From a candidate division Kazan bacterium RIFCSPHIGHO2_01_FULL_44_14 (lineage in GTDB: Bacteria; Patescibacteriota; Kazan-3B-28), in assembly GCA_001771185.1 (NCBI GenBank), contig METB01000001.1, forward strand, positions 503,200 through 567,199: a stretch of DNA of 64,000 bases, written 5' to 3'. Below are positions 29,645-32,400 of the stretch, in pieces (position 1 is the stretch's first letter; every line of letters begins with the position of its first letter). The translations under genes were made by a program, and so were the position numbers. Below the pieces are notes generated by a model, which did no database searches, was not told the DNA's origin, and saw only the letters and a program-made list of their open reading frames with translations.

Positions 29645-31445
29645 GGTTCTGGTATACCAGTAATCTTTTAAAAGGAGTTTAGATAAAGGGTTTCTAGCCC
29701 CGACTTGTCGGGGTGATAGAGTTCCCCCGGTTCCTGGATGTCAGGAGCTGATTTTTATTTGTTCTCCTTTTTGTAAGATTGTCTGGATGTACTTTTCCAA
29801 CCAGTGAGTACTCAGAGAGCTTTAGTTTTGTTTTTCATCTTGTACCGCAAGGTGCAAGTTATTTACCGTTTTGAAATTTGTTTGTTGCAAAACAAATAAC
29901 TTTTCAGAACTTTTTTGAGAGTTTGATCCTGGCTCAGGATTAACGCTGGCGGCATGCCTAACACATGCAAGTCGAATGCCCAGTGCGTAGCACTGGGAAT
30001 GTCAAATGAAAAATGAAAAATGAAAAATGTTGGTGTCTCTGGCTTCGCCAGGATTCCGGCATTTGTAATTTGTAATTTGTAATTTGGTGTTTCCAATGCT
30101 TCGCATTGGTAGCATGGCAGACGGCTGAGTAACGCGTGGGAACTTACCTCTAAGTTGGGTATAACCTGCCGAAAGGCGGGATAATCCCCAATGTGTTCGC
30201 AAGAACAAAGATTTATCGCTTAGAGAGAGGCCTGCGTCCGATTAGCTTGTTGGTGGGGTAATGGCCTACCAAGGCACTGATCGGTAGGGGGCTTGAGAGG
30301 GTGACCCCCCAGACTGGGACTGAGACACGGCCCAGACTCCTACGGGAGGCAGCAGTGAGGGATTTTCCGCAATGGACGAAAGTCTGACGGAGCAATGCCG
30401 CGTGAAGGAAGAAGGTCTTCGGATTGTAAACTTCTTTTGCTTGGGAAGATTATGACGGTACCAAGCGAATAAGACGCTGCTAACTACGTGCCAGCAGCAG
30501 CGGTAATACGTAGGCGTCGAGCGTTATCCGGATTTACTGGGCGTAAAGCGTCCGCAGGTGGGTTGACAAGTCCGATATTAAATATCCCGGCTCAACCGGG
30601 AAAAAGTGTTGGAAACTGTCGATCTTGAGATTGGGAGAGGCTGATGGAACTTATGGAGTAGGGTTGAAATCCGTAGATACCATAAGGAACACCAAAGGCG
30701 AAGGCAGTCAGCTGGCCCAATTCTGACACTCATGGACGAAAGCGTGGGTAGCAAACGGGATTAGATACCCCGGTAGTCCACGCCCTAAACGATGGATACT
30801 AGGCATTGGTGGCATCGACCCCCTCAGTGCCGAAGCTAACGCGTTAAGTATCCCGCCTGGGGAGTACGGTCGCAAGACTAAAACTCAAAGGAATTGACGG
30901 GGACCCGCACAAGCGGTGGAGCATGTGGTTTAATTCGATGGTAAGCGGAGCACCTCACCAAGATTTGACATCCTGTTGAAAGCGACTGGAAACAGACGCC
31001 TCCTTTTAGGCAACAGTGACAGGTGCTGCACGGTTGTCGTCAGCTCGTGTCGTGAGATGTACGGTTAAGTCCGATAACGAGCGCAACCCCTATGTTGTGT
31101 TGTATTTTTCACAACAGACTGCCGTGGTTAACACGGAGGAAGGTGGGGATGACGTCAAATCAGCGTGGCCTTTATATCTTGGGCGACACACGTGCTACAA
31201 TGGGTAGGTCACAATGGGTTGCGATGCCGTAAGGCGGAGCTAATCCCACCAAAACTACCCCAAGTTCGGATTGAGGGCTGCAACTCGCCCTCATGAAGCT
31301 GGAATCGCTAGTAACCGCAAATCAGCCATGTTGCGGTGAATACGTTCTCGGGTCTTGTACACACCGCCCGTCACACCAAGAAAGTGAGAAACATCCGAAA
31401 TCCTCTTTTAGAGGCCTAAGGTGGAGCTCATGATCGGGGTGAAGT

Positions 31446-32211
31446 TTAACGGCTTCCCATGCAAGTAATTGCATGGTAAAATCTAACTATATCGGTGAAC
31501 TCCAAAGTAATTTGGACAACGCCGAGGGAAGTTGGGCTAGAAGCTGGGAATGTCCCAAACAAAGCAAGGAAATCTTATCCGACAGAGTCCGTTGACATCT
31601 CAAGAAGTTGAGGTGATTCAAGGGTGTTTACTCGGAGATGGAACACTTTCCAAGTCAGGAAAGAACTATCGTCTGCGAGTTGAACATAAGTCATCACATT
31701 GGGAGTATGTTGAGTGGAAATTTGCCCTTTTAAGGCGGATTTGCATGAACGAACCTAACTATGTGCCGACGCACGCATCATTGCGTTTTGGCTCAATCGG
31801 ACATCCAGAGATTACTGAGATGAGAAGACAATGGTATCGTCCGTATAAACAGATACCGTCAGGATTAGTGCTGACACCGCTAATGTTAGCGGTTTGGTTT
31901 ATGGATGATGGCACCAAGCATCGAGATACAGTTGATGTATCGGTGCAAAGTTTTTCTAGAGAAAACTTGCAGAGTTTAAGAGATCAGTTGTTGACAATGG
32001 GAGTGCAAACTACCATCAACAGTGATTCTAAGGGCAATCGACTATACTTTATTAAAAGTAGTTACCCAGTATTCAAAAAACTTGTTAAACCATACATTGT
32101 GGAATGTATGGCATATAAGTTGCCTTAACCCCGTAGAGACTATACGTTGGCTCCGTCGAAAGACGGATGAAGACATAGTCCGGCACTCTCGGTAACGAGA
32201 GGTAACAGTCG
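31446..32211 (+). mobile_element. Intron inserted in 16S between GGGGTGAAGT and CGTAACAAGG (E. coli ~1495), carrying a homing endonuclease ORF
   Basis: the exon sequence is interrupted exactly within this conserved 3' stretch; contains the LAGLIDADG ORF. Confidence 0.8.
31550..32128 (+). CDS. LAGLIDADG homing endonuclease, intron-encoded
   Basis: two LAGLIDADG-like motifs, IQGCLLGDGTL and LMLAVWFMDDGTK. Confidence 0.85.
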   Translation: MSQTKQGNLIRQSPLTSQEVEVIQGCLLGDGTLSKSGKNYRLRVEHKSSHWEYVEWKFALLRRICMNEPNYVPTHASLRFGSIGHPEITEMRRQWYRPYKQIPSGLVLTPLMLAVWFMDDGTKHRDTVDVSVQSFSRENLQSLRDQLLTMGVQTTINSDSKGNRLYFIKSSYPVFKKLVKPYIVECMAYKLP

Positions 32212-32400
32212 CGTAACAAGGTATCCGTATCGGAAGGTGCGGATGGAACACCTCCTTTCTAGGGAGAAAAATTTAATGTTTGGCAATCTTGAATAAAGAA
32301 AGTTGAATATTCAAATTCTTCCCGAGAAGAATCGGTCGATTCTGCTATTTCTATAGCGGAATACATAGTTCTCTGGGTACTCATTGGTTAGAAAAATAAC

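Follow-up and report, generated by a model that had tools for sequence, protein, structure and literature searches.

An unlinked 16S ribosomal RNA gene of a Kazan bacterium with a predicted group I intron and a long helix 6 hairpin

The window analysed here is a stretch of 64,000 nucleotides (nt) of contig METB01000001.1, from the candidate division Kazan bacterium RIFCSPHIGHO2_01_FULL_44_14, and this study concerns the one bacterial 16S ribosomal RNA (rRNA) gene it contains. The locus is very probably a stand-alone 16S unit of a Kazan bacterium (Candidate Phyla Radiation, CPR, or Patescibacteria), which carries a group I intron with a homing endonuclease gene, a hairpin in helix 6 and a compensated change at position 526, with the 23S gene elsewhere in the genome. 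Several of these features had been proposed in an earlier note on the same DNA. The host assignment agrees with exact matches of DnaJ, DnaK, LepA and a fourth window protein in the Kazan metagenome-assembled genomes (MAGs) RIFCSPHIGHO2_01_FULL_44_14 and RIFCSPLOWO2_01_FULL_45_19 (Rifle aquifer). Handles beginning with L denote fetched related loci, and E. coli numbering was counted back from the E. coli 3' end. The gene is divided as follows.

29914-31445, + strand: 16S exon 1, E. coli ~8-1495; 1398 bits with RF00177; terminates ...GGGGUGAAGU
31446-32211, + strand: predicted 766-nt group I intron that interrupts the 3' strand of helix 44 between U1495 and C1496; covariation-supported fold, weak RF00028 match
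32212-32258, + strand: 16S exon 2, position 1496 to the 3' end, with helix 45 and the anti-Shine-Dalgarno CACCUCCUUU; read from the sequence

The Rfam model SSU_rRNA_bacteria (RF00177) recognizes the gene, which spans 29914-32258, with 1398 bits from position 29911. Given the intron interrupts the gene, the 3' end reported by Rfam, 31492, is an artefact; on reading the sequence, the conserved 3' end runs …GGATGGAACACCTCCTTT and the real terminus is CACCTCCTTT at about 32258. Exon 1 terminates with GGGGTGAAGT at 31445 and exon 2 opens with CGTAACAAGG at 32212. The insert between them is exactly 766 nt long, in agreement with the roughly 766 nt and the two-motif LAGLIDADG gene of the earlier note, and is placed two nt 3' of the decoding adenines A1492 and A1493.

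Judged by its predicted fold, this insert is a group I intron with an endonuclease gene in the loop of P6. The structure was drawn on an alignment, A2, of 21 introns at the same site (the window's and 20 others), in which the open reading frame (ORF) was replaced by a tetraloop, and its coordinates were mapped onto the window:

31452-31537, + strand: 5' half of the putative ribozyme
31452-31456, + strand: internal guide GCUUC, forming P1 with exon GAAGU
31457-31476, + strand: P2 hairpin
31483-31487, + strand: 5' strand of P3
31492-31497 and 31520-31525, + strand: P4
31501-31516, + strand: P5
31526-31537, + strand: 5' strand of P6
31550-32128, + strand: homing endonuclease gene, 192 amino acids (aa), two LAGLIDADG motifs, I-SceI family; terminal loop of P6
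32122-32211, + strand: 3' half of the putative ribozyme
32122-32132, + strand: 3' strand of P6
32138-32143 and 32175-32180, + strand: P7
32146-32150, + strand: 3' strand of P3
32152-32167, + strand: P8
32186-32201, + strand: P9
32211, + strand: terminal G

P3 is formed by CUAAC with GUUGG and P7 by GACUAU with AUAGUC, P6 is a three-part stem with the ORF in its loop, and P10 was drawn as well. Over alignment A2, 97.1% of the cells are paired in the P1-P10 structure, against 86.3% after column shuffling and 32-44% when the partners are slid. Compensatory changes, i.e., changes on both sides of a pair, are found in 27 of the 59 pairs, and none of 500 shuffles matches any of the observed measures. 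Such two-sided changes affect at least one pair in every helix bar P4 and P10; in L020 it is P1 itself that covaries, the exon reading GCUAAGU and the guide GCUUAGC. The U.G wobble of P1, between the exon U and the guide, is present in all 21 introns, as is the terminal G (omega G; G32211 in the window) followed by CGTAACAAGG. In the 3' part of the RF00028 alignment the classical R (GUAGAGACUAUACG) and S (GAAGACAUAGUCC) elements are present.

Several points weigh against this reading. The Rfam group I model RF00028 gives 29.7 bits (E=1.5e-5) against a gathering score of 50, with a match that consists of P7-P9 and a forced 5' part, and the same-site introns of the 13 closest loci all stay under the Rfam group I threshold too. 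The tested fold was drawn from the same sequences, so it is somewhat favoured over the slid controls. On reading the sequence, no clear Shine-Dalgarno is seen ahead of the endonuclease start codon. Finally, both splicing and the activity of the endonuclease are deduced from sequence, as are the ends of the transcript and what becomes of the helix 6 hairpin. The sub-threshold score is likely explained by the 580-nt ORF in the P6 loop. The earlier note had left the boundaries and class of the intron to covariance models; they are set here at 31446-32211 and, by covariation, group I, with Rfam itself below threshold.

It is very unlikely that the 766-nt insert stays unspliced. Such a fate would suit the low Rfam score, and some CPR rRNA insertions fit no intron model, while intervening sequences that are cut out without ligation are known in bacterial 23S (PMC11270868). 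It would, however, leave unexplained a full group I fold with covariation, as well as the splice-site U.G pair and the terminal G shared by all 21 introns. Moreover, the site is two nt past A1493, where, from established ribosome structure, retention or an unligated break would be expected to disrupt the decoding site.

More improbable still, to the point of being negligible, is a group II intron with a LAGLIDADG gene, like those near position 1400 of the 16S of CPR bacteria and Thiomargarita. Position-1400 introns are reported in CPR (PMC11270868), and L011, L012 and L019 have RF01998 domain matches in the 3' region of their 16S genes. These matches, however, are separate elements upstream of the position-1495 intron. 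Group II identity was rejected for the window's intron because Rfam finds no group II domain match in the window, the 5' end of the intron is UUAACG rather than GUGYG, and its ~187 non-coding nt are too few for group II domains I-VI; the group I fold, in turn, fits.

The relatives' elements are of interest in themselves. An additional group II-like element (Rfam group-II-D1D4-1) lies in the 16S 3' domain of L011 (685-768), L012 (153-232), L019 (464-539) and L141 (5469-5559). These elements fit the "position 1400" group II introns of CPR, and the window is without one.

The protein encoded in the P6 loop of the proposed group I intron matches Pfam family LAGLIDADG_2 (PF03161) over profile positions 2-168 of 168 (E=3.8e-29, 102.2 bits against a cut-off of 25) and, weakly, LAGLIDADG_3. 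It has 162 database homologues, and its residues 14-192 match I-SceI with E=1.1e-18. The aspartates of its two motifs, GCLLGDGTL (D30) and AVWFMDDGTK (D119, D120), are invariant across a 33-sequence alignment. Pairwise ratios of nonsynonymous to synonymous substitution rates are 0.08-0.15, with synonymous divergence near saturation, which indicates the endonuclease is kept by selection. The last codons of its gene, together with the stop codon, double as the 3' strand of P6, and this accounts for part of the conserved C-terminus …CMAYKLP.

Homologous introns were gathered by a scan of one genome per species with protein alignment and a metagenome scan with an R-element pattern. Twenty further introns were found at exactly the same site, i.e., 21 with the window's, all after an exon U and 758-823 nt long. 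The R-element pattern matched more than 120 metagenome contigs, yet only 22 of its 147 matches are at the position-1495 site, so this family of ribozyme cores is spread across many other sites. Hosts of the same-site introns are CPR MAGs together with MAGs labelled Elusimicrobia (L021) and Margulisiibacteriota (L022 and L023), a distribution that fits horizontal spread of the intron. Purifying selection and this same-site spread across MAGs with different phylum labels lend indirect support to cleavage of the intron-less site by the putative endonuclease. Given the same-site introns fall under the Rfam threshold, censuses based on Rfam likely undercount the position-1495 type.

As to the three introns on contigs binned to non-CPR phyla (L021, L022 and L023), each carries a homologous endonuclease with 46-48% identity. 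The L021 contig has a normal linked operon, 16S-Ile-Ala-23S-5S, and its 23S gene has introns too.

The second unusual feature of the gene is in its variable region 1 (V1):

29975-30120, + strand: expanded helix 6 (V1), a 146-nt hairpin with 55 predicted pairs

In the Rfam alignment, helix 6 exceeds the bacterial model by an insertion of 114 nt at 29988-30101. Tandem Repeats Finder reports 3.7 copies of AAATGAA at 30004-30029 and 3.7 copies of ATTTGTA at 30061-30086, both with 100% matches. The segment 29975-30120 folds as one hairpin of -62 kcal/mol (z=-8.1), and none of 200 shuffles is as stable. The earlier claim that these heptamers pair into a long helix therefore holds, although they are not strict complements: the arrays are in register, and every heptad supplies four Watson-Crick pairs and one G.A / A-U / A.G triplet. 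As the three "unpaired" positions of a heptad face each other as G.A, A-U and A.G, the helix may be continuous.

Of the 27 fetched 16S genes that cover the region, 23 have a V1 segment of 22-46 nt. L158 (144 nt, z=-8.2) and L118 (145 nt, z=-8.1) have hairpins of nearly the window's size and the same stability, with arms made of unrelated repeats; L118 and L158 are among the nearest 16S relatives in the 3' domain, with 85% and 84% identity. The L014 segment reaches 498 nt, and in L141, the full-length 16S most similar to the window's among loci from another organism (81% identity), helix 6 is almost deleted. Among strain variants of the window organism V1 is identical. A consensus of the three long hairpins by RNAalifold was unusable, since MAFFT misaligned the unrelated arms and only two local hairpins resulted; single-sequence folds were used instead.

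Two fates can be considered for the hairpin. One, a serious possibility though short of probable, is that RNase III excises it as an intervening sequence and leaves the 16S in two pieces. This would suit a near-continuous helix of ~55 base pairs (bp), an RNase III-type substrate, and short non-intron insertions are common in CPR rRNA (PMC11270868). The other, for which we have somewhat less confidence and which we put forward only tentatively, is a true expansion segment, which in the mature ribosome would form a rod of ~55-65 bp extending the spur of the 30S subunit. Hairpins of 144, 145 and 146 nt with unrelated arms in three lineages suggest a structural constraint, which speaks against simple excision and is nonetheless compatible with either fate. 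A length held at 144-146 nt in at least three Kazan-like lineages while the arms turn over would point to a selected structural role. Were the hairpin retained, that role could be, e.g., ribosome-ribosome or ribosome-envelope contacts in very small cells. Intervening sequences in helix 6 of 16S occur in a few bacteria.

Arrays of similar units occur elsewhere in the window. Period 7 is the most frequent period in the Tandem Repeats Finder list, and AT-rich arrays of this period are found at 17601-17624, 37106-37162, 50525-50560, 52668-52699, 52801-52818 and 56080-56106, and also at 14901-14933, mostly intergenic near gene starts. Their units are AATATCC, TTTGGAA, AAATGAC, AAATTAA, TCCAAAT and AAGTGAA, and the V1 arms use like units; the V1 segment of L158 is built of GAATTT-type units, as is the array at 37106-37162. 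A further length difference was seen in V2 of the strain variant L005, where a hairpin-forming stretch of 98 nt (L005 631-728) replaces the window's 12 nt at 30195-30206, i.e., ~86 nt extra. L005 is 100% identical to the window ahead of this site and 98.7% beyond it, which indicates rRNA expansion content varies inside the species.

The third feature is in the 530 loop:

30478-30506, + strand: 530-loop region, with U505 at 30478, the 515F site GTGCCAGCAGCAGCGGTAA at 30488-30506 and A526 at 30499

The mismatch to 515F-type primers noticed earlier is present, as A526 within GTGCCAGCAGCAGCGGTAA. Positions 505 and 526 form a pseudoknot pair in E. coli 16S. Given A526 pairs with U505, the mismatch is a compensated substitution. 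Elsewhere in the fetched 16S genes, 12 carry G505/C526, 11 carry U505/A526 and nine carry U505 with C526; double changes include UAC/GUA (four genes), UCC/GGA and CGC/GCG. From these sequences, the substitution is taken to be real, compensated and typical of the lineage.

Regarding amplicon surveys, which the earlier note expected to miss the organism, the expectation is clear-cut for primers of the 1492R type: the intron divides the 1492R target after its fourth base, so such primers would lose the match at their 3' end. It is less so for 515F, since the one mismatch is internal and would weaken priming but need not abolish it. The 27F, 338F and 806R targets are unchanged. Brown and co-workers reportedly described the problem of priming CPR 16S genes in 2015.

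An odd primer site, insertions and an unlinked 23S could also mark a decaying pseudogene left by disruption of an operon. This is highly improbable, given the full-length match to the bacterial 16S model at 1398 bits, the compensation at 526 and the restoration, by splicing in silico, of the universal helix 44/45 sequence with the anti-Shine-Dalgarno at the 3' end. Furthermore, exon 1 is 98.7-99.1% identical among strain variants of the window organism, V1 being invariant between them, and a single rRNA copy is usual in CPR genomes (PMC11270868).

The surroundings of the gene also have the appearance of a complete unit:

29616-29644, + strand: promoter-like site TTGACA-17-TATCCT upstream of the leader; 10/12 in a consensus scan, a pattern match only
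29790-29821, + strand: leader strand of the putative 16S processing stem, a 32-nt arm 84% complementary to the trailer
32367-32398, + strand: trailer strand, pairing with 29790-29821 across the whole gene
32394-32520, + strand: three strong hairpins after the trailer, at 32394-32431 (17-bp perfect stem), 32445-32460 followed by TTCTTTT, and 32467-32520

The leader-trailer stem resembles, by analogy, an RNase III-type processing stem. The fold of 32360-32520 has z=-8.8, and the hairpins at 32394-32520 are the probable end of transcription; together with the repeat at 32525-32702, the 17-bp stem at 32394-32431 corresponds to the terminator-like hairpin and repeat DNA of the earlier note. Just upstream of the promoter-like site, a 17-bp inverted repeat (GACCCCGTTAGAAATCC … GGCAATTTCTAACGGGGTT) encloses ~85 nt at 29499-29619; its 3' arm overlaps the TTGACA hexamer, its fold has z=-3.1 and it has no Rfam match.

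Rfam gives no large subunit (LSU) rRNA match across window positions 1-64000, in line with the absence of a linked 23S in the earlier note, and this places the 23S gene over 29.9 kb upstream of the 16S or over 31.7 kb downstream of it. The distance exceeds the 1500 bp to the 23S beyond which a 16S gene is regarded as unlinked (10.1101/705046). The locus L121, from a different species (~74% identity over the aligned 16S 3' end and intron), has the order 16S, repeat, tRNA-Ala, small ORF, tRNA-Ile, cobalamin adenosyltransferase, RecO (tRNA, transfer RNA), without a 23S and without the 362-aa ORF present in the window. In L011 the flanks are as in the window and the tRNA cassette is inverted. Of the other close loci that extend 8 kb or more downstream, L012, L013, L017, L018, L019 and L020 have no 23S there; L016 has one ~6 kb away, and L021 has a normal operon.

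As far as these comparisons indicate, the 16S gene is a stable unlinked unit, and the unlinked state is old and stable in the group; neither a broken operon nor a misassembly is supported. The reading as a stable unit follows from the processing stem and terminator hairpins, the gene order of L121 and the 100% identity in three assemblies. The suggestion of a disrupted or rearranged operon thus stands in an evolutionary sense and not in the sense of a broken locus. A chimera, in which the assembly joined the 16S to unrelated DNA, would explain the missing 23S and the odd tRNA layout, and rRNA genes are, as a matter of general knowledge, often break or join points in metagenome assemblies. It is nevertheless extremely unlikely: the locus, with the junctions on both sides, is 100% identical in three separate ENA metagenome assemblies (L001 and L002, 20.6 kb, and L003, 11 kb) and 99.7% identical in one contig of another accession series, which for practical purposes excludes a chimeric join, an error that had been named earlier as what would overturn the reading. 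In addition, leader and trailer are complementary across the gene, and L121, from another species, has the matching order from 16S to RecO.

Between the 16S and the next conserved genes lie the following features:

32525-32702, + strand: copy of a dispersed intergenic repeat, 75-77% identical to 15976-16117; related copy at 63884-64000
32883-33971, + strand: lineage-specific ORF, 362 aa from TTG (330 aa in public assemblies)
34161-34843, mixed strands: tRNA cassette, with tRNA-Ala(UGC) at 34161-34237 (-), a 73-aa membrane-like ORF at 34352-34573 (-) and tRNA-Ile(GAU) at 34767-34843 (+)

The two tRNA genes are on opposite strands, as claimed before. The ORF between them and the 16S is also present, but calling it GC-rich was an overstatement, as its GC content is 49.5% against 45.7% for the window, i.e., mildly raised; with a difference of just 4 points, its treatment as a compositional island was dropped. 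Neither this ORF nor the 73-aa ORF has a Pfam or NCBIfam match, and in L011 and L121 no counterpart of the 362-aa ORF lies between the 16S and the tRNAs. A palindromic repeat, CCTGCCTGCCGGTAGG, flanks it at 32484-32508 and 34032-34056 and is found within the window only around this ORF; these copies may mark an inserted segment. Its 17-25-nt motif (GCCTGCCTGCCGGTAGG) has three copies, at 32484-32508, 32758-32776 and 34032-34056.

The cassette of tRNA-Ile, a membrane-like ORF of ~70-80 aa and tRNA-Ala is shared by three related genomes (window 34161-34843, L011 2697-3232 and L121 2913-3416). It lies between the 16S and the cobalamin adenosyltransferase gene; L121 has it in the window's orientation and L011 in exactly the opposite one. 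Elsewhere in the window, three tRNA-Met(CAT) genes lie on both strands inside 1.3 kb, at 7118-8423.

The dispersed repeat of ~200 nt (…AAAAGACACCCNACTCACAAATT…TTTTCTTTCTGGCTT…GCCTTCGCTGCGAAAATTT…TCGATGGG) occurs in the window at 32525-32702, 15914-16117 and 63884-64000 and in L121 at 3688-3818, where it lies downstream of the 16S. A hairpin precedes each copy, and no Rfam family matches the repeat. A second, GC-rich repeat family (GCCCGTCCGCAACGATTCGCCAGCCCGTAGTGG…) of 70-104 nt has four copies with 76-97% identity, at 22218-22321, 49173-49276, 36666-36735 and 53981-54050; one adjoins tRNA-Leu, and another falls within the cobalamin adenosyltransferase ORF region.

Taken together, the locus would work as follows. 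A primary transcript would run from a promoter near 29.6 kb to the hairpins at ~32.4-32.5 kb, and the 16S would probably be released via the leader-trailer stem. The intron would fold (P1-P10, with a P3/P7 pseudoknot) and excise itself by two transesterifications initiated by free guanosine, rejoining U1495 to C1496. The monomeric I-SceI-type enzyme encoded in the P6 loop would cut intron-less 16S genes at GGGGTGAAGT|CGTAACAAGG, after which the intron would be copied in (homing); the intron-less junction sequence and predicted target is GATCGGGGTGAAGTCGTAACAAGGTATCCG. The endonuclease may also assist splicing. The helix 6 hairpin would either lengthen the 30S spur or be trimmed out, and the 23S would be supplied by a gene elsewhere in the genome.

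The whole feature set is a known CPR signature, which the earlier note did not recognize as such; it has been described at the class level, and the genome is already public, so its novelty is low and the current understanding of CPR biology is unchanged by this locus. The practical value is that of a worked example of how CPR bacteria escape or distort 16S surveys, with a split 1492R site, a V1 region ~100 nt longer and a compensated change in the 515F site. In addition, real introns with a large ORF in a peripheral loop can escape the Rfam group I model. Hence, counts of "unclassified" CPR rRNA insertions are probably too high. The covariation-based fold and the 21 position-1495 members (labelled CPR, Elusimicrobia and Margulisiibacteriota) could serve as the starting point for a better model.

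CPR 16S introns with LAGLIDADG ORFs were reportedly first noted by Brown and co-workers in 2015. Insertions in CPR rRNA resemble group I or group II introns, code for LAGLIDADG proteins and are missing in transcripts, as summarized in PMC11270868, whose introduction credits Brown et al. 2015. Insertions of at least 100 bp occur in 48% of CPR 16S genes, and Rfam called 35% of the insertions group I (PMC11270868). The group I introns are concentrated at sites 16IS4-7 and 16IS10, of which 16IS5 and 16IS10 have LAGLIDADG_2/_3 ORFs; LAGLIDADG genes also occur in group II introns, at position 1400 (16IS9), and many short ORF-less insertions are unclassified (PMC11270868). According to Tsurumaki et al. 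2024, group I introns at 16IS10 were previously unreported outside CPR (PMC11270868). With a site 3' of position 1400, group I class and a LAGLIDADG_2 ORF, the window's intron appears to be of the 16IS10 type, which would make 16IS10 identical with position 1495. It shares with the 16IS10 introns of Tsurumaki et al. 2024 (PMC11270868) the CPR host, the 16S gene, the location 3' of 1400, the group I class and the LAGLIDADG_2 ORF. It differs in that the paper classed introns by Rfam only, whereas the window's intron is sub-threshold in Rfam and has its fold from covariation. The CPR enzymes stressed there are single-domain (PMC11270868), while the window's enzyme has two motifs.

In that respect the closer parallel is I-SceI of the omega intron in yeast mitochondrial 21S rRNA, likewise a monomeric two-motif LAGLIDADG enzyme within an rRNA group I intron and homologous to the window's enzyme (E=1.1e-18). 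The I-SceI host gene is, however, an organelle large-subunit rRNA, the enzyme has 235 aa against 192 aa, and its target sequence is another. Thiomargarita provides bacterial 16S genes with group I introns and a LAGLIDADG-bearing group II intron, with the same effect on surveys by polymerase chain reaction (PCR), but in Gammaproteobacteria; a position-1495 intron is said to have been described there by Salman and co-workers in 2012.

The separation of the 16S from the 23S, far above 1500 bp, is like that of the unlinked rRNA genes of Brewer et al., who name Patescibacteria as such a clade (10.1101/705046). Unlike those, the window keeps tRNA-Ile and tRNA-Ala by the 16S, in a divergent cassette that has a small ORF in the middle. 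Lastly, the helix 6 hairpin resembles known intervening sequences and expansion segments in being an extra hairpin at the tip of helix 6, and short ORF-less non-intron insertions are common in CPR (PMC11270868); it differs from helix 6 insertions elsewhere in being built of in-register heptamer repeats with G.A / A-U / A.G triplets.

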